This document shows positions 1,619-39,597 of a DNA stretch of 39,860 nucleotides, piece by piece. The position numbers and the translations under genes were made by a program. Position 1 is the first letter of the stretch; each line of letters begins with the position of its first letter. The notes beneath the pieces were generated by a model. It saw only the letters and a program-made list of their open reading frames with translations. It was not told the origin of the DNA and searched no databases. The DNA comes from a virus, in the IMG/VR virus record IMGVR_UViG_3300028806_000002, positions 1-39,860 of that record, one strand, 5' to 3'.

Positions 1619-1894
1619 TTATAATATTCGCACTGTAGTCTTTAAATTTAACACAAATTCGCATTCTTTCTCGAGTATTTCGCCTCGCTTATAAAGATCA
1701 TATAATTGATCACTTAACATACTCACCAAACGATTGACGCTTGGAATTAAATAGACATTTCTAATTGTCTCTTTAATTTTATCTTCGTTAATATCTTTTA
1801 GCGTACTAAAATCTATACGATTGATGCAATTAAATCCGGGGTTTAGCAAGTATGCATCGTCATCCGCTACTATCTGTATATCAATCATTTTCAT
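1619..1894 (-). CDS. Hypothetical protein
   Basis: 91-aa ORF with a 4-nt overlap with terS, consistent with translational coupling in the late operon. Confidence 0.5.
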   Translation of the reverse strand: MKMIDIQIVADDDAYLLNPGFNCINRIDFSTLKDINEDKIKETIRNVYLIPSVNRLVSMLSDQLYDLYKRGEILEKECEFVLNLKTTVRIL

Positions 1895-2337
1895 AACTTG
1901 TCTACTATCTTTTCCAATAATGATTGCTCTGCGCCAATCTCTATTTTTTGCATGCCGTAAATTTTGGGTGCTAATTTAGACGCGTACCACTTGATATTGT
2001 CTAGCTCAATTCTAAGCCTCTGTATTGCAGCATGATTAACACAGCGTTTTCCCTCGCCGTCATCGTAAAAATCATTGATTGCAGCGCGTGCTTTGCTGAT
2101 TACTGTATTGACAAGCGGTTCGATCTGCTGCATTTTCGCGCGCGCGAACATCTCACCAAATTCTGCGTGTCTTAAACGCCATTTGTATACTGTATTAGCG
2201 ACGGGAAAATTGGGGTTTTCTTCGCATATTTCTTCGAGCATTTTTGGACTATGAGCAACTGCGTCACATATATCTTGCGCTAACTCTATAGTATACGTGC
2301 TAGGTCGTCCTACTTTTGTCATAGTCATACACTCCAT
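1891..2337 (-). CDS. terS: Terminase small subunit (HTH-type)
   Basis: The N-terminus KVGRPSTYTIELAQDICDAV...TVYKWRLRHAEFGEMFARAK and the later RIELDNIKWYASKLAPKIYG match the common phage TerS pattern GRPskYtpE...vy.W...f...ya.A. The real start is probably ATG 2328 or 2322 (GGAG upstream). Confidence 0.65.
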   Translation of the reverse strand: MECMTMTKVGRPSTYTIELAQDICDAVAHSPKMLEEICEENPNFPVANTVYKWRLRHAEFGEMFARAKMQQIEPLVNTVISKARAAINDFYDDGEGKRCVNHAAIQRLRIELDNIKWYASKLAPKIYGMQKIEIGAEQSLLEKIVDKL

Positions 2338-2837: not shown

Positions 2838-3272
2838 ATGATAAATTTAATCGCAAATGATAAATACAAATCACTCGGCTGCAAATGGGATTCTTCGGCA
2901 AAACAATGGGTTCCGCCAAAACTTGCAAAAAAAGAATTTGAAGAGATAAGAGATAAATTTTTTAGCGATCTAATAGTGATAGAAGTTAAATCTTTGCCGG
3001 ACAAAATGTTAAAAGGTAAAGATTGGGGGTTTATACACGTGCGAATGATCGGCGGTTATTTAGTCGCAAAAGTAAATAATAGAGACAGCGGGGCAGAAAT
3101 TTTTAAAGATATAGCTTTAATAAAAGGTAAATTTACCTCAAGTGGTTCGAGAAAAAATTATTTTTGCGATCACGACGAGGTAATCTTGAGGCTAGAAGTT
3201 TCGAAAGGCTCGATAGAATACATAGATAAGGAAGTTGCCGAAGGAATTTACACGTATGAAATAATTGGATAA
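2838..3272 (+). CDS. Hypothetical protein with a DUF5710-like N-terminal motif
   Basis: 144-aa ORF with leader TAAGGAGATACAAAG. The N-terminus NDKYKSLGCKWDSSAKQWVPP resembles the ak.LGArWD...K.W motif. Function unknown. Confidence 0.7.
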   Translation: MINLIANDKYKSLGCKWDSSAKQWVPPKLAKKEFEEIRDKFFSDLIVIEVKSLPDKMLKGKDWGFIHVRMIGGYLVAKVNNRDSGAEIFKDIALIKGKFTSSGSRKNYFCDHDEVILRLEVSKGSIEYIDKEVAEGIYTYEIIG

Positions 3273-3277
3273 CTAGC

Positions 3278-3321
3278 TTAATCCCCCGCGCTCATTCTCA
3301 AGAGTGAGCGACACGGATTAA
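3278..3321 (+). repeat. Intergenic structured element, copy 2 (44 nt, different upper stem)
   Basis: Same TTAATCC/GGATTAA lower stem, but the upper stem is CGCTCA/TGAGCG. Pairing is kept while the sequence changes. Confidence 0.7.
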
Positions 3322-3346
3322 ATTAAACAACTAAGGAGATACAAAG

Positions 3347-3496
3347 ATGAAAATAATCGAAGTAAAAAAGGCTATAAGAGATACATATAAACAGTACAAA
3401 AAAGGCAATATTAGCAAGCAAGAATATCTTGACGAAGTTCAAAGCTTGAGATGGCAATTTCCTCAATATTTCTACCCTGCTGAATGGAGGATATAG
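3347..3496 (+). CDS. Small hypothetical protein (49 aa)
   Basis: TAAGGAGATACAAAG leader then ATG. Translation: MKIIEVKKAIRDTYKQYKKGNISKQEYLDEVQSLRWQFPQYFYPAEWRI. Confidence 0.5.
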   Translation: MKIIEVKKAIRDTYKQYKKGNISKQEYLDEVQSLRWQFPQYFYPAEWRI

Positions 3497-5471: not shown

Positions 5472-5882
5472 CTAAATTATTAACTCAAAGTGTACTAAAT
5501 CATTAAATGATTGCTTGGGTAATGTTGTATGTCCTTCCCAATTTCCGCCCCAACGAATAGCGTGTGTCATTTTATTTTCCTCTTTCAAACGCGACGCCAC
5601 ACCCAAAACATAACCCGCAAACCAGTAGAATCTTTGCGTATTTTCCCAATCAATAGGATAGGGAGAAACGTCGACCGCATTTGACGGCTGAGAATTATGT
5701 TTTCCGTTTGGCCATTGTAATTTAGTGTTGCCATCTGAATAAGCATCGTTTTGAGCCTGCTCGTTTCTGAAACCTTCGATTATCGTACAGTCAAAAGTTC
5801 GCACAACTTCGTAAAATAACGTTTGCAAATCAATGTGACAAGTTGCTAGTTTGCTGAACGATTCTTGGCTGAATTTCGGCAT
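5472..5882 (-). CDS. Endolysin, peptidase M15 (VanY / L-Ala-D-Glu peptidase-like)
   Basis: Motifs GKHNSQPSNAVDVSPYP and FNDLVHFEL match the zinc-binding H..(6)..D...H signature of M15 peptidases. 136 aa with no cell-wall-binding domain. Confidence 0.8.
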   Translation of the reverse strand: MPKFSQESFSKLATCHIDLQTLFYEVVRTFDCTIIEGFRNEQAQNDAYSDGNTKLQWPNGKHNSQPSNAVDVSPYPIDWENTQRFYWFAGYVLGVASRLKEENKMTHAIRWGGNWEGHTTLPKQSFNDLVHFELII

Positions 5883-6015
5883 TTTCGACTTCCATATTGA
5901 CTAGATTTATATCAAGCGTATCACAATGGCGGTTACAAGTTATACAGCAATAATACGAGTCTGATTCAGCGCACACTAAAAAAATGTCTTTTTTGCAACA
6001 TCTGCTAACGACCAT
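5830..6015 (-). CDS. Possible small Cys-rich protein (61 aa)
   Basis: AAGGA lies 9 nt upstream of the ATG. Contains CCKKD...CAESDSYYCCITCNRHC. The 3' end overlaps the endolysin start by 53 nt. Confidence 0.4.
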   Translation of the reverse strand: MVVSRCCKKDIFLVCAESDSYYCCITCNRHCDTLDINLVNMEVENAEIQPRIVQQTSNLSH

Positions 6016-6043
6016 CTACAATATCCTTTTGTAAAATATGGTG

Positions 6044-6070
6044 AAAAAAAAGCCCGCATATCCAGCGGGC
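6044..6070 (-). terminator. Rho-independent terminator (minus strand)
   Basis: GCCCGC (7-nt loop) GCGGGC stem followed on the minus strand by T8, just downstream of the VRR-NUC gene. Confidence 0.7.
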
Positions 6071-6117
6071 GAAACGAGGAACATTAAGGAAGAGTATATT
6101 TTATGAAAATGAACATG

Positions 6118-6510
6118 TTAGGGCGGAGTATAAACATCTCTCAAATATTCTTCAATACTTTCTTTTGCTTTTATCCAATCGTCGAAATATTCGGCTTTGT
6201 AACCTTGGGTTCTAACTTTTTCCATGAAAACATACTGATTGCCTCTTGGCTTTTCGCCGGGTCGCTTAAGCTCGATAAAATAGCCGTGATATTTTCTGTT
6301 AGCAATTGGCATAAATAAATCTGATGCGCCTGCCGTTAATCCTGTACTTTTTTCGCGCATGCTCATTGCAAATGATCTCTTTGCACCATTGGGTATTGAT
6401 ATTATCAGTATACTAAGCATTCTACACCAGTTTACTAATGCTGCTTGGATTTGCCACTCTTTTGTGCAAGTAGCGTCGATCATGTTTGATTTTCTTGCCA
6501 CTTTCCGCAT
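6118..6510 (-). CDS. VRR-NUC domain nuclease
   Basis: EWQIQAALVNW...IPNG...GLTAGASDLFMPI...GYFIELKRPGEKPRGNQYVF...GY matches the VRR-NUC (PD-(D/E)XK) pattern. Start ATG 6510 follows GGAGG. Confidence 0.7.
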   Translation of the reverse strand: MRKVARKSNMIDATCTKEWQIQAALVNWCRMLSILIISIPNGAKRSFAMSMREKSTGLTAGASDLFMPIANRKYHGYFIELKRPGEKPRGNQYVFMEKVRTQGYKAEYFDDWIKAKESIEEYLRDVYTPP

Positions 6511-7429: not shown

Positions 7430-8232
7430 TGATTTATCCCGTTTACGCGGTCGTAATCTGGGTTACCTGGTTCCCAGAATTTTATTGGGCACTTTTCAAG
7501 TTTTTCCTGTTTTTCAGGAGTTTTATTCATGTATGTATTGTTTTTTGGGAACTTTTCGTCCAATATCCATTTTGTTAATGCCTCCTGCCAATTAGCTTTC
7601 TTTGTTCCCCTAGCCCTTGCATCGTGAATAAACTTGCCTATCACAATGTCTGCATCAAGTTTCCTGTATTCAGCCAGTTCAACGTTTTTTTTGTTCGGCA
7701 TAAAATCATCTGGGAGAGCCGTGAGCGTGCTTTTCGCGAACTTGCTCTCTCCTTTATTTTTGTATTCTCTTTTATTTTTAAAATCTCTTTTATTACTAGT
7801 GTCGGTTTTTCCAGCTTCTGGATTATCCAGAATCTGGTTTTTCAGTATTCTGGACTTTTCACATCCAGAATACGGGTTTTCAGTAATCTGGTCTGTGGAT
7901 AACTTTTTGTTGATATTTTCTACGTCTAGACAATTCACTAATTGGGTTTCCCAATGAGTTATTTTCCCTTTTTCATCTCTGATGGATTGTATTTTTATTG
8001 CGCCAACTTCTTTCAAAATTGCTATTTTATTTTGAATATAATCTCGTCCTACTCCGAATCTTCTCTGTAGCTCAACTTGGCATATTTCCCAGTTTTCAGG
8101 TTTTGAAGATAAGTAACAGTAAATCCCCAATGCGCCAGCATCAGGTATTAAATCCATCATCTGGTTTATAATCGTGGTGAAAGAAAAACCAGTGTGTTTT
8201 AAAAAATTTGGAGTGTTTTTTATGATCGACAT
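7426..8232 (-). CDS. Putative replication initiation protein (winged-helix N-terminus, DnaT/DnaD-like C-terminus)
   Basis: The N-terminus GALGIYCYLSSKPENWEICQVELQRRFGVGRDYIQNKIAILKEVGAI is wHTH-like. The C-terminus LPDDFMPN...FIHDARARGTKKANWQEALTKWI fits the phage replication-protein motif. ATG 8232 has AAGGAA 8 nt upstream (track start 8238 is TTG). Confidence 0.5.
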   Translation of the reverse strand: MSIIKNTPNFLKHTGFSFTTIINQMMDLIPDAGALGIYCYLSSKPENWEICQVELQRRFGVGRDYIQNKIAILKEVGAIKIQSIRDEKGKITHWETQLVNCLDVENINKKLSTDQITENPYSGCEKSRILKNQILDNPEAGKTDTSNKRDFKNKREYKNKGESKFAKSTLTALPDDFMPNKKNVELAEYRKLDADIVIGKFIHDARARGTKKANWQEALTKWILDEKFPKNNTYMNKTPEKQEKLEKCPIKFWEPGNPDYDRVNGINH

Positions 8233-10424: not shown

Positions 10425-10964
10425 ATGAACACATCTAAAAACTTAAGTCTTTGGAAATTAACTAACGAGCATCAAAAGTTGTTGTCGGAACTATACGACT
10501 ATGAAACGGGAGAGGTAAATGAAATAGTACAGGCTAAATTAGACTTGTTAGAGCCTGATATAAATAAAAAGTGTATCGCAGTTAGTGGATACATTCGTAA
10601 AATTGAGTCTGAACAAAGGGAGTTGGAATCACTTCTAATTGAAGTTGAAAGCAGGATGAAGGCATACGAAAAGGAACGGGAAAAATACCGGAACTATTTG
10701 CAAAGTAACATGGAAAAACAAGGGATAAATAAAATTGAATGTCCGTACTTTACTGTGCGTATAAAGAAAAATCCTTACTTTACGGATATCATTAACGAGG
10801 AATTAATACCTCATGAATTTATGAGGGAACGTGAGATAGTTCGAGTTGAAGTTAAACCTGATAAAAATGCTATAAAGGAAGAAGTATTGCGTACTGGGGA
10901 ACAAGTACCAGGTGCATATGTCTCACAGAAAAATAAGCTTGAGATAACCACTTCTAAAATATAG
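10425..10964 (+). CDS. Siphovirus Gp157-like protein
   Basis: 179 aa with a coiled-coil N-terminus and C-terminus IPHEFMRE...VKPDKNAIKEEVLRTGEQVPGAYV, typical of the Gp157 family found next to phage recombinases. Confidence 0.6.
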   Translation: MNTSKNLSLWKLTNEHQKLLSELYDYETGEVNEIVQAKLDLLEPDINKKCIAVSGYIRKIESEQRELESLLIEVESRMKAYEKEREKYRNYLQSNMEKQGINKIECPYFTVRIKKNPYFTDIINEELIPHEFMREREIVRVEVKPDKNAIKEEVLRTGEQVPGAYVSQKNKLEITTSKI

Positions 10965-29932: not shown

Positions 29933-31183
29933 TTATGACATAACTCGAACTGAAAACTCTGGGTTATTTTCTTCACCTCCAATAATATCGATACGATCTA
30001 ATTGTAAGTAATTACGAATATCTGCACCCAAAGAGTAAGTCATCGCGACTTTGTATAGATCACTGTATGAAGTAACTGCTTCAACACCACCTTTTAATTC
30101 CTTAATTGGTGGTGCAGCAAAGACAATGGCTTGATTATGAAATGCAACTGAAACATTATGATTAGTTGCTAAATAAATTTGGGCACCTTGAGGAATAGGA
30201 GCAGAAATATTTTGTCGTGCACCACTAATAACAATGGTTGGATTAACTGGAATATTAGTATTTCCTGAACCTGTTGCGGTAACTTGTGCAGTAACAACAA
30301 ATTGTGCGGTTTGAGATAATGATTCATAGTTTAATGGATTTACCATGAACACACCATTTGAAGCATCAACTGTTAGAATATCTCCAACTTGAAAAGAGAT
30401 GCCAGCAGCTAATCCAGAAACTTGTATGATATTTCCACCAGTAATAGGACCATTTGTTACGACACCAGCAGCAACATATCCGGTAGGAGGCATACCACCT
30501 GTTGCACCAGGAGTACCAGCAATTTGTTTCTTCAAGAAATTAGTCTTGAAGAAATCAAAACCAGATAAGTGACCAATGAATCCATCTAACAATGCACCGC
30601 GATTAACAGTCATGTTAAATACGTCATATAACGATTTACAAAGAGTTGCTGATACAGAAGGACTATTAGCAAAATAACGATTTCCATCTTCTGGAATACC
30701 TAATTCCGTCATATATGCATCAGTGTCAAATATCGTATCTTGCGTAATAGGTACCATTCCACCAGGCGTACCAATTGCTTGATAAGTAGATAACTGAAAT
30801 TTGGTTGCAATAAATGATTCGACCATATTAGCTAAACGTTTAGCGCGAGGATTTAACATCATATCGAGATAGGGTTGATCACGTGCGCGATCAAAGGTTA
30901 GTTCAAATCCTGAGAACTCAACCATGGTATGAAATTGCTGATCAATAGTAAGCGGTCTAACAATTTGTACACGTGCTTCTGATGATGCAGTAGCACCAAA
31001 TCCACCGATATATCTTTCTTCCAAACGATAATTAATCGTCTGTCCAGTAGCGTATTTCAGCCCTTTAAAGTCAGCTTCAAGATTACGATTTGCGACCTTG
31101 GCGAAATTAAGATAATTGATAAACCTAACAAAAGTTTCATCGAGAATATATTGAGTAGTTTGAAAAGAATTGGTCATTGACAT
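29933..31183 (-). CDS. Major capsid protein (P22-coat-like)
   Basis: About 416 aa and followed by a terminator. ANRNLEADFKGLKYATGQTINYRLEERYIGG resembles the P22 coat family N-arm. ATG 31183 has GGAG 10 nt upstream (track start is TTG). Confidence 0.75.
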   Translation of the reverse strand: MSMTNSFQTTQYILDETFVRFINYLNFAKVANRNLEADFKGLKYATGQTINYRLEERYIGGFGATASSEARVQIVRPLTIDQQFHTMVEFSGFELTFDRARDQPYLDMMLNPRAKRLANMVESFIATKFQLSTYQAIGTPGGMVPITQDTIFDTDAYMTELGIPEDGNRYFANSPSVSATLCKSLYDVFNMTVNRGALLDGFIGHLSGFDFFKTNFLKKQIAGTPGATGGMPPTGYVAAGVVTNGPITGGNIIQVSGLAAGISFQVGDILTVDASNGVFMVNPLNYESLSQTAQFVVTAQVTATGSGNTNIPVNPTIVISGARQNISAPIPQGAQIYLATNHNVSVAFHNQAIVFAAPPIKELKGGVEAVTSYSDLYKVAMTYSLGADIRNYLQLDRIDIIGGEENNPEFSVRVMS

Positions 31184-31415
31184 GTTTTGTCGCTCCGTGA
31201 CAAATAAACTTAAAGCCAAAGAATTGGCTATCCATTTTTTTGTCCGGCGGAGGACTGTTAAAAAATCTATCTAATTTTAGTAGCCGGCGGCACTACCCTA
31301 TATCACCCGAAATTTCATTAGATAAATAATCTAACTCACAGCCACAACACCACTTGCCCGCATCTATTTAACGTCCGATGGAAGACTGCAAATGATAAGA
31401 GAATTTTATCTCTTG

Positions 31416-34281: not shown

Positions 34282-36459
34282 TTATTCACGTTTTGCAACT
34301 TTTGTCTTTTCATGTGCTGCCTTATGTTGTAATTCCTTATGATGCATTTCTTTTTCATGATGCAACTGACTAGCGTGCGTGAGCATCTTAATCATGTTCT
34401 GAGAATTAGTTATTTGCATATCAACCCCCATACGCTGATTTTCAGCCGTATAACGCAATATAGTCTCTTGCAACTGAGCTGCTTCTTTCTGCTTATCAGC
34501 TTCTAACTTCGCAAATCCAAGTGACATATCTTGTTGCGTCTCAAGTGCCTTTCGTTGCAATTCTTGTTTCTTCAATTCTAATTCCTGCATCTTCATTTGA
34601 GATTCTTGTTGTGCTTGTTGTGCTTTTTGTTGCATCTCTTGTTGCTTGAGTTGTAACATCATTGCATCAGGTGAAGGTTGCGGAGGTTTAGGAGGTAATG
34701 GTTTACCAGTCTTTCCAGCTTCAATTATTTCAGGCGGAACTAAAGTTCTTAATCGATTACGTAATTCCATATTGTTATCTAGTGGAAGATTTTCAGCGTA
34801 TAGATCTGCAATCATTGGGAACACTTGACCAGCCCTATCAGCTTGCAAAACGGATTGTAGCGATAGCAGTGCTTCTTGCTTCTGTCCCTCGTAAGAAGGC
34901 CCCGCTTTAAGTCTGATATTATACTTACCCTTAGTCATATCATTTTTCATTTGCAACCCATACTCATCCATAGGTTGATTGATATTGACTGTCTGAGATT
35001 CAGATTCCGGCATATTCAATACAAGTGAGCGCTCAGTATCATAGATTTCAGGTATCCACTCGTTTATGATTTCGCCACCCGTTGCAATTGCGATATTTAT
35101 TGAATTGAATGGTGTTGCTGTATTACGTGTACCTCTATTTGTTCGAGCTTCGATTGCAGTGCCAGAAACTTCATTGCCTAACTCGCCCATTTGTGTATCA
35201 TACATACCCGTGCCGCTCTGGATATCCATTAAGGTACGTTCGTATTGTTGTACCAGGGATTGTGATAACTCGGGCGGCTTTAGTTGTTCAGGCTTAGCAC
35301 CGCTAGCCGTTTCATCGTAATATAACGCACCATTTACTACCGAAGGGTCACGCCATTGCTGCTGTGCATCAGGAGATGCTGCGCACTTACGCGGCATGAT
35401 GAATTGATCAAACCTAGATATTTTCAGCATATAAGCTGATTGTGTTGCGAGATAATTTAGATATTTCTGTGCGTCTTTGACATCTTTGAAGAACGAACGT
35501 GTGATCTGCTGACCTTGTTTAGAGAAATAACTTTTCTGGTCAACAAAAACAACGGGCAATAATGTGGCTTTAGAAGGTAAATAAGTCTCTTCAAGTACAA
35601 AATCACCCGCTATCTGGGTATGTTTTATTTTATACTTTATTGATTCACGTTTATCAACAACTGTAACAGCTTGGCCATTACTAATAATATATTTTTTACC
35701 GTCAAACTTTACTTTCTCTAACTTTTTAAATTCTTTATCATTAACAATAGAACCATCTGATAGTTTGTAAATTGTTATCTCTTCAGGTTCTTTATTGTAA
35801 TCATCGACAATTGTAATCGAATCATCATCAGCAAAGGCAATTGTGCTATCTTCGGTTATTGCAGTCGTTCCAATCTGCGATTCAATGTCACGACCCCATG
35901 TATCTCTAAATTTTCTGCGTGATATTCTCGTTTTATATCCTGAAAACATGCCATCTACTTTACAAACATGTTTTGCTGATATATCCCAGTAACAACGATT
36001 AGGGTCTTCGAACGGATAAATCTTTATTATTTGCTCAAAACTTTCATTATCTTTGTATTCAGTATCTATTCTATATGCACCAAATCCACCGCAAGTCGAA
36101 TGACTAAATGCATTTTGATATACACTCTTAGCATCTGAGTTAAAACTGATATCTTTGACAATTGCAGCACGAACTTGCGCGGTTTCTGGGGGAACATCTT
36201 CGGAAGGCATGATCTGCATATTCGGTGTATTGAATATTTGCTCACCGCAAAGATGATTATGCAGAACGCCAAGTTTATTGAATACTAATGGGATTTTGTT
36301 ATAACGTTCGAATAACTCAGATTCATTTTCTCGCCACTGGTCGCCCATGATGAAATCGAGCCACTCATAGTACATAGACCTGTTTATAGTCCAATACTTC
36401 TCCCACTTATCGACTCTATCCCTTATCTTCCGGCATAGTTCCGGATTTTTGCTTGGCAT
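34282..36459 (-). CDS. Portal protein (P22-like, 725 aa, long C-terminal coiled-coil barrel)
   Basis: The N-terminus DFIMGDQWRENESELFERYNKIPLVFNKLG fits portal motifs. The Q/K/E-rich C-terminal helix resembles the P22 gp1 barrel. Position relative to terL and scaffold also fits. Confidence 0.8.
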   Translation of the reverse strand: MPSKNPELCRKIRDRVDKWEKYWTINRSMYYEWLDFIMGDQWRENESELFERYNKIPLVFNKLGVLHNHLCGEQIFNTPNMQIMPSEDVPPETAQVRAAIVKDISFNSDAKSVYQNAFSHSTCGGFGAYRIDTEYKDNESFEQIIKIYPFEDPNRCYWDISAKHVCKVDGMFSGYKTRISRRKFRDTWGRDIESQIGTTAITEDSTIAFADDDSITIVDDYNKEPEEITIYKLSDGSIVNDKEFKKLEKVKFDGKKYIISNGQAVTVVDKRESIKYKIKHTQIAGDFVLEETYLPSKATLLPVVFVDQKSYFSKQGQQITRSFFKDVKDAQKYLNYLATQSAYMLKISRFDQFIMPRKCAASPDAQQQWRDPSVVNGALYYDETASGAKPEQLKPPELSQSLVQQYERTLMDIQSGTGMYDTQMGELGNEVSGTAIEARTNRGTRNTATPFNSINIAIATGGEIINEWIPEIYDTERSLVLNMPESESQTVNINQPMDEYGLQMKNDMTKGKYNIRLKAGPSYEGQKQEALLSLQSVLQADRAGQVFPMIADLYAENLPLDNNMELRNRLRTLVPPEIIEAGKTGKPLPPKPPQPSPDAMMLQLKQQEMQQKAQQAQQESQMKMQELELKKQELQRKALETQQDMSLGFAKLEADKQKEAAQLQETILRYTAENQRMGVDMQITNSQNMIKMLTHASQLHHEKEMHHKELQHKAAHEKTKVAKRE

Positions 36460-36486
36460 AATAAGTTAATCCTTTAACTTATCGCT

Positions 36487-36516
36487 ATTATAGCATTTTG
36501 GTGTATTTTACACCAA
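36487..36516 (-). promoter_or_regulatory. Extended -10 promoter upstream of the portal gene
   Basis: On the minus strand: TTGGTG, 18-nt spacer, (TGC)TATAAT. The -10 box lies ~28 nt upstream of portal ATG 36459. Confidence 0.5.
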
Positions 36517-37021
36517 TATCATCCTTGCCTTAGTAAACAAAACAGTACAACACAATACAACACAATACACTATTAAAAACCCTTACCTTACATTTCAGCA
36601 CAAAACAATACACCACACCACAACACATGACAGGAAAAAATTAAAACCCTTACATTTCCTTACAACGCATAACATCACAATGCATTACATATCGGCACAA
36701 TACATCACAATATTAAAAACCCGTACATTTCCTTACAATGCATTACATCACACAACAATACGCCACAACACAAAACAAAACATCACATGACACTATTAAA
36801 AACCCGCACATTTCCTTACAACGCATAACATCACAATGCATTACATATCGGCACAATACATCACAAAATAAAAATCCTTACCTTACAAGACATTACCCCA
36901 CAACACAGCACGCTACAACACATTACAAAATTAAAACCCTTACCTTGCCTTACGCCACAGGACAGCACATCACATAACAGAACCTGACATGACAATATTA
37001 AAAACCCTTACCTCGCCTTAC
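36515..37021. repeat. Repeat array A: 8 copies of a 62-83-bp unit
   Basis: Plus-strand core is ATTAAAAACCC(K)TAC(A/C)TT(TC)CCTTACAA. Copies start at 36515 (degenerate), 36572, 36640, 36712, 36795, 36867, 36930 and 36997. Inter-core segments are A/C-rich and related to each other. Confidence 0.9.
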
Positions 37022-37072
37022 GAAACAGCACGCTACAGCACGCTACAGCACATCACACCACATTACACAATA

Positions 37073-37104
37073 GTTTCAATCCACGCGCTCGTGAAGAGCG
37101 CGAC
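37073..37104 (-). CRISPR. Solitary type I-C-like CRISPR repeat (single copy, no array)
   Basis: The minus strand reads GTCGCGCTCTTCACGAGCGCGTGGATTGAAAC. This shows the I-C hallmarks: GTCGCGC 5' end, 7-bp stem CGCGCTC/GAGCGCG with a 5-nt loop, and an 11-nt TGGATTGAAAC tail. It is a GC-rich island in an AT/AC-rich spacer. Confidence 0.8.
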
Positions 37105-37137
37105 TACAAAACAGCACAACACAACACACAACATCAA

Positions 37138-37166
37138 AGTATAATTATTAGTTACTCTCACGCCAA
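37138..37166 (-). promoter_or_regulatory. Candidate promoter reading into the solitary repeat
   Basis: On the minus strand: TTGGCG, 17-nt spacer, TATACT. It overlaps the 3' end of ORF 37148..37693, with the -10 box ending 33 nt upstream of the repeat. Confidence 0.35.
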
Positions 37167-37693
37167 TTCGTCACAACAAATCGTCCATATATACCTTTTC
37201 TAGCTGGCCTAAAATCACCTAACCCTATTTTGGTTCCAGCATCGTCAATCAAAGTACGGATGAATTTTGGGCTAAACATCTTTAAATCCAACGTCAAAGT
37301 AAAATCTATGCACCAATTATCTAGCCTAGGTCTATGACAAACGATTCGACCACCAGTTGACGGAACAACGACAGCCCTGCTATCAACTTCCCACGTTTCA
37401 GGCGATTTAAAATACACGATTTCGCCTAAAATCATCACACCAGCAGGAACTAAAGAACTTCTAGCAGTCGTTACTTTTACCTTACCATCTTTATGAAATT
37501 TACCTGCTTCAACCAAGCAAGCAAAAATATTCACAGTAGGATAATATAATTTTTCATCCTCATCGACATAGCAAACACGTCTAGCAGCTTCGCGAGGTAA
37601 TATATCTTTATCTTTTTTTACTTTCTGCTCATCAATATTAAAACGATTCATCAGAAGCGGTGTTATCCCTGTTATTTCTATATCAATATTCAT
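37148..37693 (-). CDS. Hypothetical 181-aa protein with RAMP-like motifs
   Basis: Track ORF. Its SD is the double AAGG of array copy B1 (TAAGGTAAGGATATTAAATG). Motifs in RAMP order: IEITGITPLLMNRF, LYYPTVNIFACLVEAGK, GLGDFRPARKGIYGRFVV (Gly-rich loop-like). Confidence 0.7.
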   Translation of the reverse strand: MNIDIEITGITPLLMNRFNIDEQKVKKDKDILPREAARRVCYVDEDEKLYYPTVNIFACLVEAGKFHKDGKVKVTTARSSLVPAGVMILGEIVYFKSPETWEVDSRAVVVPSTGGRIVCHRPRLDNWCIDFTLTLDLKMFSPKFIRTLIDDAGTKIGLGDFRPARKGIYGRFVVTNWRESN

Positions 37694-37695
37694 TT

Positions 37696-37986
37696 AATAT
37701 CCTTACCTTAGATTACAGCGCAATACAAAACAGCACGTCACAATACAACACATTATTAAAAACCCGTACATTTCCTTACAACACAAAACACTACATTACA
37801 TAACGCCACAATACATCACATCACAGAAAATTATTAAAAACCCTTACATTGGATTGCATTAGAGCACAAGACAAGACACTACAACACAAGACAGCACAAT
37901 TAAAAACCCTTACATTTCCTTACAACACAAAACATTACATAACGCCACAATACATCACGTTTAAAAACCCGTACATTTCCTTACAA
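37696..37986. repeat. Repeat array B: 5 copies of the same unit
   Basis: Cores at 37696 (degenerate, doubles as the RBS), 37755, 37833, 37899 and 37960. Spacers are homologous to one another (ACACAAAACAYTACATAACGCCACAATACATCAC). Confidence 0.9.
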
Positions 37987-38076
37987 CACAAGACAGTACA
38001 ATACAGTACAATACAAAACATCACGTTTAATGAAACAAAAAAATATACATAGATAATTGATACTTGTAAACATTTA

Positions 38077-39597
38077 CTATCGAAACATCCCTCTTTCGTG
38101 TGGCATTAACTTGGGTACTTCAATTGCTGTCTGTACGCCGTGAAACCCTCCAGCAAACGTTAAACACAACGCATCAGCACCATCAGGGCTTGGCAATCCT
38201 CTTGCCCGTAAATCATCCTTCGATTCAATCTGTACCTGCCCATTTGAGTTTTCTTTGAAGCCTAATGAACACAATTCGCCGTGCAATGTGTCCTCGTCCG
38301 GTATCTGCACTGGCATATCTTGATATAGCCAATCTCGCATATCACCCCACAATTCCGCACGCTGATTCTTGTAACGTTCCTTGTCATTAGCACTACGAGC
38401 AACATTTACACCTTCAACACAGTCATAACCCATTTCATTTAATCTGTCCACAACGCCTGCACCGATTCCAATGCAATCAATATATACTTTGTCGGGTTTT
38501 TCCTCGGTTATAATGCGCTTAACACGGCCTGCAATTTCCATCGTATTGAGATGCGAGACACGTTCTAAGTTATAAGCACATCTTCCCTTACGGCGAATAA
38601 TAGCAGTCCGATCTCTATCTGATATCGCAACATCCACCCCAATAATAAGCTTGCTACCCATATCAACTTTTGCAGCACGCGCAAATTCAACGTACTTAGA
38701 ATTGATAAACACGTTGTGAATAGGGTTTTTAAATGCTTCAATTGAATTAAAAGGGTACTCAACATTAAATCGTTCTCTTCCTGCATCAAAATCCTTTGAA
38801 AACTCGTTAATTTTTAACCTACGCCAAGATAAATTATCATTAGTTAACCCATTTTTTCCATACTGAGACACTAAATACTCTTCTTCATCCGATAAATGCA
38901 TATTTTCGGAGTTATGCGAGTACTCATCATTCCAATACCATGGCAAAAATATACTTTGATACTCACTATCAGGCGACATACCTGATAACCAGCGCTCATG
39001 GAAGTAATTTCCGATACCATTTGCCGTAGATTCTAGGATAATTTCCGTACCTGGTTCATTTGAGATTGCCTGCAAGATACCTTTGCTATGATCTTCAGCA
39101 AATGCCCAAAATGCGACTTCTGAACCGTGGAAAAGCTGCACGGTTTGCGACCGACCGACTGCTTTATTGCCTGCAGTACCAATCGCGTAGCCTGAATCTA
39201 ATTGCTTAAAGTTTAATTCCTTTGCATTATCCGTATTCGGCTTAGGGCATAATCCTGGTTCCAAGTTTTCATTAAACCGTTTGGCCATATTGAACAGATT
39301 ATTAGTTGCTTCTTTATCGTGCGTGAGAATAAATGCTTTTTTACCGCGCGAAGTGATGATCTGATGGAAGAACCTAGCCTGTATATATGTTGAACAACCT
39401 TGTTGTCGTCCCTTTAAAATGCAGGCACGCACACGTCCCGTCGATTCCTTTTGACGAGCAAGACGTTCATGTAAGTAGGACTGTGCGCGATTAAACGTGA
39501 AATACTTTTTAACACCGGCCTTGTCTTTAACAATCAGAAATCGCTCGGCAAATTTCTGAAAATCCCTAATTGAATCTAATTTAGCTTGACTTATCAA
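38077..39597 (-). CDS. terL: Terminase large subunit
   Basis: 506 aa. Deviant Walker A in ACILKGRQQGCSTY, FILTHDKEA, and a C-terminal nuclease-like IGVDVA...YIDCIGIGAGV...DGADAL. The only in-frame start is TTG 39597. Confidence 0.85.
   Translation of the reverse strand: MISQAKLDSIRDFQKFAERFLIVKDKAGVKKYFTFNRAQSYLHERLARQKESTGRVRACILKGRQQGCSTYIQARFFHQIITSRGKKAFILTHDKEATNNLFNMAKRFNENLEPGLCPKPNTDNAKELNFKQLDSGYAIGTAGNKAVGRSQTVQLFHGSEVAFWAFAEDHSKGILQAISNEPGTEIILESTANGIGNYFHERWLSGMSPDSEYQSIFLPWYWNDEYSHNSENMHLSDEEEYLVSQYGKNGLTNDNLSWRRLKINEFSKDFDAGRERFNVEYPFNSIEAFKNPIHNVFINSKYVEFARAAKVDMGSKLIIGVDVAISDRDRTAIIRRKGRCAYNLERVSHLNTMEIAGRVKRIITEEKPDKVYIDCIGIGAGVVDRLNEMGYDCVEGVNVARSANDKERYKNQRAELWGDMRDWLYQDMPVQIPDEDTLHGELCSLGFKENSNGQVQIESKDDLRARGLPSPDGADALCLTFAGGFHGVQTAIEVPKLMPHERGMFR

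Follow-up and report, generated by a model that had tools for sequence, protein, structure and literature searches.

A single intact type I-C CRISPR repeat occupies the tail slot of a guide-RNA unit in the VIPR locus of a P22-like phage. The phage is represented by IMG/VR record IMGVR_UViG_3300028806_000002. The entire stretch of 39,860 nucleotides, referred to here as the window, covers its whole genome (39.9 kb) in circularly permuted form. Alignment with the closest relative shows that, as judged from sequence, the I-C repeat has replaced the invariant 3′ tail of D1, the first vrRNA unit after the vipr gene, in this phage lineage. By analogy with other phage-borne solitary repeats, we tentatively read the element as an RNA anti-CRISPR, that is, a Racr-type decoy for Cas5c/Cascade that would be expressed with the vrRNA array; our confidence in this reading falls slightly short of even.

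The type I-C repeat and its bacterial counterparts

The element is 32 nt long and reads GTCGCGCTCTTCACGAGCGCGTGGATTGAAAC on the minus strand (Table 1). It starts 43 nt past the TAA of the vipr ORF and is co-oriented with vipr and with the terL, portal and coat genes. The repeat RNA is predicted to fold into an initial GU, a 7-bp stem (CGCGCUC/GAGCGCG), a 5-nt loop and an 11-nt single-stranded tail. This hairpin has a free energy of -12.5 kcal/mol and accounts for 83% of the ensemble, and the identical hairpin forms when the repeat is folded in its 66-nt context. It thus shows the length of ~32 nt, the GTCGC... start, the GC-rich stem of 7 bp, the short loop and the 11-nt 3′ part, with its ATTGAAAC end, of type I-C repeats. 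Folding of the 161-nt region gave an overall stability not above that of shuffles (z = +1.19), and the local hairpin alone is meaningful. A scan for intrinsic terminators called none at the repeat, where the hairpin is followed by UGGAUUGAAAC and not by a U-run.

Within the window the 32-mer is single-copy at up to 3 mismatches, with 0 matches expected from shuffles, and the 21-nt stem-loop half has no second copy anywhere in the window at the same tolerance. The 11-nt handle has one other match with 1 mismatch, which is within chance. A known repeat is thus matched without other full or partial repeats in the window, at an intergenic position in a P22-like phage genome, and none of the ORFs tested belongs to a Cas family. 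An earlier note, made from the letters of this DNA alone, had described a 32-nt minus-strand repeat of this fold on the strand of the late genes, 43 nt beyond the stop of the neighbouring ORF, with no second copy or half-repeat elsewhere; sequence, fold, coordinates and uniqueness all agree with that description.

Its assignment to type I-C is likewise confirmed by exact matches. GTDB genomes contain arrays built from the identical 32-mer, with as many as 41 copies at a spacing of ~66 nt (Casimicrobiaceae, 41 copies; Lysobacterales, 31; a gammaproteobacterial MAG, 17; Fibrobacteria, 5), and arrays on metagenome contigs hold up to 107 copies. The spacers in these identical-repeat arrays are 32-38 nt long. 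The Lysobacterales array (L008), read in the same orientation, is followed by Cas1c (TIGR03640, 498 bits against a cutoff of 385) and Cas4. The 32-mer is a bona fide, intact type I-C CRISPR repeat. Rfam found nothing at the locus at gathering thresholds; under relaxed thresholds CRISPR-DR9 scored 20.5 bits against a gathering score of 45 (E = 0.18), a sub-threshold match. Single repeats seldom attain the thresholds of the Rfam CRISPR-DR families, and the exact-match evidence therefore outweighs the Rfam miss.

The earlier note had looked to I-C arrays with near-identical repeats in hosts of 35-40% GC, and such arrays exist with the exact repeat: the GC content is 0.40 in two carriers (L003 and L008) and, outside the array, 0.35-0.39 in five others (L083, L085, L086, L090 and L093), against 0.35 in the phage. 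It had also taken the repeat for a direct host-prediction handle, a claim that was not supported. The identical 32-mer spans Casimicrobiaceae, Lysobacterales, Fibrobacteria, Verrucomicrobiaceae and unclassified Gammaproteobacteria MAGs, and because identical copies occur in several phyla the repeat is a weak handle on the host. When all 497 spacers from the identical-repeat arrays were compared with the window, the best match covered 25/35 positions, which does not stand out from shuffled spacers, and none rose above the shuffled null. Two further bacterial occurrences stand apart from the long arrays. A chromosomal contig of a Casimicrobiaceae MAG (L007) carries a truly solitary exact 32-mer on the reverse strand at position 1446, and a Verrucomicrobiaceae MAG (L004) has the exact 32-mer at 7514-7545 in a one-spacer mini-array with a degenerate terminal repeat.

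Table 1 Positions of the features of the window that are discussed in the text
Feature	Position	Strand	Description
terS	1891-2337	-	with three small ORFs, continues across the window ends to terL
Mu Gam-like gene	10425-10964		
Coat gene	29933-31219	-	
Portal gene	34282-36459	-	
Portal start region	36455-36530	-	TATAAT box and hairpin (ATAAGTTAA-AGGA-TTAACTTAT)
VIPR locus (assigned from sequence)	36520-38030	-	UGU/NN (YNNNG) type; vipr and 14 vrRNA units, between terL and portal
Downstream vrRNA array	36520-37072	-	units D2-D9; repeat families, unit layout
Unit D7	36640-36711	-	
Unit D5	36795-36867	-	
Solitary type I-C CRISPR repeat	37073-37104	-	32 nt
11-nt 5′-handle part of repeat	37083-37073	-	TGGATTGAAAC
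Repeat, second stem strand	37090-37084	-	
Repeat, loop	37095-37091	-	
Repeat, first stem strand	37102-37096	-	
Repeat, initial GT	37104-37103	-	
D1 body	37105-37147	-	pentamer tract TGTTG TGTGT TGTGT TGTGC TGTTT TGTA
Sigma-70-like site	37166-37138	-	TTGGCG-N17-TATACT; 9/12 in a consensus scan; overlaps the vipr 3′ end
vipr	37148-37693	-	predicted 181-aa Cas7-like RAMP; invariant C-terminal G-loop GLGDFRPARKGIYGRF
Upstream vrRNA array	37694-38030	-	units U1-U5; (TGTNN)7-10, then tail TAAGG-AAATG-TACGG-GTTTTTAAT
terL	38077-39597	-	

The VIPR locus around the repeat

VIPR systems, as set out in the main text of a recent preprint (bioRxiv 10.64898/2026.04.26.720920), combine a ~20-kDa ancestral RAMP, Vipr, with vrRNAs made of 9-16 YNNGG repeats, whose NN positions specify a DNA target under a reading that skips 1 nt. 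An invariant tail closes every vrRNA at its 3′ end. These phage-encoded systems are directed against competing phages; YNNNG is among the alternative repeat classes, and hammerhead ribozymes lie between the units of some arrays. The same text proposes VIPR as the ancestor of CRISPR and describes it as not associated with CRISPR repeats.

The ORF adjoining the repeat matches no Pfam family and falls into PHROG 4652, whose function is unknown; it has more than 1000 metagenomic homologs. An AlphaFold2 model of its product (pLDDT 88.5, pTM 0.84) was compared with the PDB by Foldseek, and all of the top 50 matches were Cas7-family RAMPs (type VII Cas7, Csm3, Cmr4 and Cas7-11), with TM scores of ~0.4-0.6 and probabilities of 0.99-1.0. 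Alignment of the family profile of the window protein with the Vipr of phage SUSP1 by hhalign gave a probability of 98.5% (E = 2.4e-15) over the full length, with the glycine-rich C-terminal loop, which is invariant across the Vipr family, in alignment. The link between the window protein and phiSUSP1 was also found by tblastn. From the model and these alignments we assign the ORF as Vipr, a predicted small RAMP homologous to the described Viprs.

Intergenic DNA on both sides of vipr consists of GT-rich repeats of ~61-83 nt, which resolve into five vrRNA units upstream of the gene and nine downstream (D1-D9). Each unit keeps a common register, with a run of TGTNN pentamers followed by the conserved end GTAAGGAAATGTACGGGTTTTTAAT, and 13 of the 14 units end in GTAAGG...GGGTTTTTAAT-type tails; the exception is D1, where the I-C repeat forms the end. 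In U5 the tail also serves as the ribosome-binding site of vipr. Autocorrelation of the array at lag 5 was 0.52, against 0.32 ± 0.02 in shuffles, and nothing was seen at lag 6 or in the portal coding sequence. The first three pentamer positions carry 1.07, 1.84 and 1.32 bits of information, whereas positions 4 and 5 carry 0.26 and 0.20 bits. These features, taken with the assigned Vipr, place in the window what we identify by sequence as a VIPR locus of the UGU/NN (YNNNG) kind. Other readings of the GT-rich repeats (CsrA or ribosome sponges, cysteine-rich mini-ORFs, pac sites or Rho-evasion sequence) were dropped, because the pentamer arrays are linked to the RAMP gene family-wide and match the VIPR preprint.

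A vap gene was not found: the stretches of the window that separate vipr from the arrays, terL and portal contain no ORF, and the main text of the preprint describes vap in the VIPR operon as only "typically" present (bioRxiv 10.64898/2026.04.26.720920). A search for vrRNA targets under the 1-nt-skip rule in 2 Mb of local sequence gave no signal over shuffles, and three vrRNA guides searched against IMG/VR for perfect matches gave zero exact matches. Units D5 and D7 have identical guide tracts, and units U2 and U4 are nearly identical; this indicates recent, putative duplication of units within the array. The VIPR locus also causes a strongly negative GC skew of the plus strand, between -0.36 and -0.41, at 36-38 kb. 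On the far side of the downstream array, a TATAAT box lies ahead of the portal start, together with a hairpin that shows the Shine-Dalgarno sequence in its loop, an arrangement conserved in the closest relative (L015, 3330-3400). This hairpin may be a translational control element. The window has no tRNAs, and Pfam gave no match for any of the large tail or structural ORFs at 14.7-29.7 kb.

The repeat lies in the tail slot of D1, with the junctions ...TGTGC TGTTT TGTA[I-C repeat]TATTG TGTAA TGTGG...; pentamer-periodic sequence abuts both of its ends without spacer remnants. The closest relative is the phage on a 39.6-kb contig (L015) whose Vipr is 94% identical. When the two loci are aligned, the 32-mer stands for the last guide pentamers and the native tail (...TTACGTAAGTTAAGGCAATGTAAGGGTTTTTA). 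That native tail is unstructured (-1.2 kcal/mol), as opposed to the stable hairpin of the repeat. The D1 body keeps 5-6 low-complexity pentamers, compared with 7-11 in the other units, so D1 has probably lost its function as a VIPR guide and probably serves as the 5′ leader of the repeat. Directly 3′ of the repeat end ...ATTGAAAC begins D2, a full-length unit of 9-10 pentamers with a native tail.

These surroundings qualify two statements of the earlier note. It had placed the repeat inside a structural module, which is true only at a distance, but the immediate context is a VIPR guide-RNA array. Its statement that there are no cas genes holds literally, but the adjoining ORF encodes the Cas7-like RAMP Vipr. 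The promoter that it proposed is present, 34 nt upstream of the repeat and absent from L015 at the aligned position, but sites of this kind are not enriched, with five around the repeat against 6.2 ± 2.6 in shuffles. It is possible that this site is a dedicated promoter for D1 and the repeat, and we list it as a candidate.

Distribution among VIPR loci and viral contigs

The same VIPR architecture occurs in relatives (L009 and L015), and the position between terL and portal is shared by L009, L011, L013 and L015. Whether relatives also carry the repeat at this locus, a question raised in the earlier note, has a divided answer. The identical element is present in the same phage from two further samples (L013 and L014), but L015 lacks it and L009-L012 have no I-C-like repeat at up to 8 mismatches. 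No I-C-like repeat was found at up to 9 mismatches in 63 IMG/VR VIPR loci, and a hairpin detector applied to 26 low-GC VIPR loci found a GC-rich hairpin inside the arrays in the window only. Besides this phage, none of more than 80 VIPR loci examined has a CRISPR repeat. A search of IMG/VR for the exact 32-mer returned 0 matches, so the collection searched does not include this phage itself, and neither the locus nor half of the genome matched a GenBank phage by blastn. The element is confined to a single, near-clonal phage lineage and is missing from L015 and all other VIPR loci examined; it is therefore young.

The pentamer arrays are a family-wide feature. A 5-nt-periodic tract starts within tens of nucleotides of the vipr homolog in ~50 of 63 related viral loci; its coding strand is G-rich, and it is almost absent elsewhere in these loci. 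The pentamers take the form (GGCNN)n in high-GC phages, (GGTNN)n in others (L068 has ~40 phased pentamers of this form) and (TGTNN)n in the clade of the window. Three cultured phages carry the module, namely Felixounavirus tootiki, Pseudomonas LESphi2 and Listonella phiHSIC. In Listonella phage phiHSIC (L081, AY772740) three (CAANG)n arrays lie at 3100-3420, downstream of the vipr homolog ORF22, and the annotated protein genes ORF21 and ORF20 are probably mis-annotated vrRNAs. Pseudomonas phage LESphi2 (L078, 2080-2400) and Escherichia phage tootiki (L079, 2240-2320 and 3520-3580) have Vipr with pentamer arrays in early or regulatory regions, beside cI/sigma or DNA ligase, where the arrays are unannotated or labelled just "repeat_region".

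Solitary I-C-class repeats, in single copy, were found in IMG/VR at 47 loci for the 31-nt class and at least 78 for the 32-nt class. Among the matches listed (~125), none is near a pentamer array, the maximum periodicity being 2.43 against at least 3.0 for arrays. The nearest of the matches listed differs by 1 nt (L220, IMGVR_UViG_3300036766_000196, reverse strand, 8292). It lies on an unrelated 37-kb viral contig of 46% GC with an intrinsic terminator 25 nt 3′ of the repeat, and by analogy its layout is that of a putative canonical stand-alone Racr. The abundance of solitary I-C repeats on unrelated viral contigs points to repeated, apparently independent acquisition.

Just one contig has both a solitary-scan match and Vipr among the matches listed (L260, IMGVR_UViG_3300016457_001209; 11 kb). 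It was rejected as a second case of VIPR with an I-C element, as its repeats form an ordinary 11-repeat array 5 kb from the vipr gene. The I-C array and the vipr gene with its pentamer array lie at 59-749 and 5580-6341, respectively, and the contig may therefore be described as a putative VIPR-bearing element adjoining a host I-C locus.

Readings of the element and comparison with known systems

RNA anti-CRISPRs were discovered from solitary repeat units (Camara-Wilpert et al. 2023, PMC10651486). The main text of that study reports 2,103 viral SRUs and a validated type I-C inhibitor, RacrIC1. Phage solitary repeats are bound, according to the same text, by the repeat-processing Cas protein together with Cas7 to give dead-end complexes, and RacrIF1 forms aberrant Cas6f-Cas7f complexes (PMC10651486). 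If the window repeat acts as such a decoy, D1 and the repeat would be transcribed in the sense orientation, as part of the vrRNA array or from the promoter-like site at the vipr 3′ end. The product would be a small RNA in which a GU-rich leader of ~30 nt precedes the I-C stem-loop. Where the host has a cognate I-C system, Cas5c would bind this RNA and cut at the 3′ base of the stem, which from I-C biology is expected to fall between 37084 and 37083. The resulting 3′ hairpin, devoid of a 5′ handle, would be unable to nucleate a complete Cascade, and the D1-repeat RNA could titrate Cas5c and Cas7c away from the crRNAs that target the phage.

Several observations argue for this decoy reading. The repeat is identical at 32/32 positions to live I-C arrays, one of them beside cas1c/cas4 and several in carriers of 35-40% GC; its hairpin forms in the local context, where the replaced tail was unstructured; the exact same phage with the element recurs in two further samples; and the promoter-like site is absent in the closest relative. 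Other observations weigh against it. The promoter call is no better than chance, there is no terminator 3′ of the repeat, unlike in L220, no spacer links the phage to any carrier, and the element is known from one lineage only. Racrs are often acr-linked, and no acr or aca genes were recognised near the repeat. The suggestion of the earlier note that the element is a candidate anti-CRISPR stands to the extent that the repeat is intact, solitary, sense-oriented, intergenic and on a phage, but it is not a free-standing unit, as it replaces a vrRNA tail.

The repeat might instead be a scar without function: illegitimate recombination or template switching would have brought a piece of a host I-C array into a recombination-prone repeat array, where it has not yet decayed. 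The event is a singleton in one near-clonal phage lineage, vrRNA arrays are tandem repeats with duplicated units (D5 = D7) and are evidently recombining, and the absence of nearby acr genes, of a terminator and of a strong promoter is consistent with a scar. However, random capture would rarely yield exactly one whole repeat that is free of spacer bases, oriented for transcription and placed precisely in the tail slot. A scar would also have to account for the full identity to live repeats and for the many unrelated viruses that carry solitary I-C repeats, elements of a type for which activity is reported in the main text of PMC10651486. We regard a scar as unlikely. The exact boundaries, the orientation, the perfect identity, the recurrence of solitary I-C repeats in viruses and the window-specific promoter-like site favour function over accident.

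A second alternative supposes functional crosstalk between VIPR and CRISPR, in which the repeat would be a surrogate vrRNA tail or processing signal. Cleavage by host Cas5c would give D1 a 3′ end and D2 an 11-nt I-C 5′ handle. Cas5c might then mature the array in the way that hammerhead ribozymes do, or the RNA might bridge Vipr filaments and parts of Cascade (Cas5c, Cas8c, Cas3). The placement speaks for such a function, the repeat being exactly in the tail slot and in register with the array, with a full-length D2 guide and its native tail starting immediately 3′ of it. Vipr is itself a Cas7-like RAMP. In the main text of the VIPR preprint, ribozyme-interspersed arrays give a precedent for foreign processing modules, and the vrRNA tail parallels the crRNA repeat handle (bioRxiv 10.64898/2026.04.26.720920). 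Against crosstalk, the other 13 units and all relatives work without the repeat, the D1 guide is truncated and of low complexity, and there is no second instance among the more than 80 VIPR loci. Moreover, Vipr has a 5-nt register where Cas7c has a 6-nt one, with nothing to indicate co-assembly, and reliance on a host Cas protein would narrow the host range. We therefore consider functional crosstalk quite unlikely. The more specific claim of a natural functional chimera of two RNA-guided systems, in which a vrRNA tail was swapped for a host I-C repeat, we judge decidedly unlikely, and there is just as small a chance that either of its forms operates, namely that host Cas5c matures or caps VIPR guides or that a Vipr-bound RNA recruits or poisons Cascade and Cas3. 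If true, a chimera would mean direct molecular crosstalk between VIPR and CRISPR and would make guide-RNA handles modular and exchangeable.

It is most improbable that the repeat is a regulator of the Cracr/crlRNA type, whose 5′ handle and downstream sequence (here UAUUGUGUAAUGUGG...) would guide host Cascade by partial complementarity, with at least 9 PAM-proximal matches required, to repress cas or toxin promoters: viral crRNA-like RNAs do reprogram I-C, I-E, I-F and V-A effectors (bioRxiv 10.1101/2024.10.29.618823), and a putatively transcribed non-coding sequence follows the repeat, but the known elements are mini-arrays with a repeat-flanked spacer, whereas here no second or degenerate repeat lies within 90 nt and the would-be spacer is the generic TGTNN tract of vrRNA D2.

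The window holds a natural locus where a CRISPR repeat and vrRNAs would share one transcript. It offers a construct with which to ask whether Cas5c processes vrRNA arrays, and it poses the questions of whether Vipr competes or co-assembles with Cascade on a single RNA and whether phages deliver anti-CRISPR RNAs via highly expressed guide arrays. Also documented here are a low-GC UGU/NN clade of VIPR located between terL and portal, and vrRNA arrays that are unannotated, or mis-annotated as ORFs, in GenBank phages. A CRISPR repeat as a vrRNA handle is mentioned neither in the main text of PMC10651486 nor in that of the VIPR preprint.

The element shares features with four described kinds of system and departs from each. 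It resembles Racrs in being a single host-type I-C repeat on a phage, intergenic and transcribable in the sense orientation, with a promoter-like site upstream and no cas genes; unlike them it is not a promoter-SRU-terminator cassette, has no acr neighbours and is embedded in a VIPR array as a tail replacement. The locus resembles described VIPR systems in its ~20-kDa homolog of the SUSP1 Vipr, its flanking pentamer arrays with three conserved and two hypervariable positions, its invariant 3′ tail and its phage carrier. It differs from them in being UGU/NN (the YNNNG class) and not GGY/NN, in having no evident vap, in lying between terL and portal, and in having one unit that ends in a CRISPR repeat rather than a tail. 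With viral mini-CRISPR arrays and Cracrs it has in common a phage CRISPR-repeat RNA by which type I Cas proteins of the host would be engaged, but the window has no second repeat or identifiable spacer and the flanks are vrRNA pentamers. Like the ribozyme-interspersed arrays of types I and V VIPR, it would place a structured RNA processing module between vrRNA units; this module, however, would need host Cas5c instead of being self-cleaving, and it occurs once and not between every unit. Taken alone, the solitary repeat is one more candidate of an established type, and the VIPR locus belongs to a kind that was described only recently. What appears, from its sequence context, to be new by location is a CRISPR repeat that stands in for a vrRNA handle.
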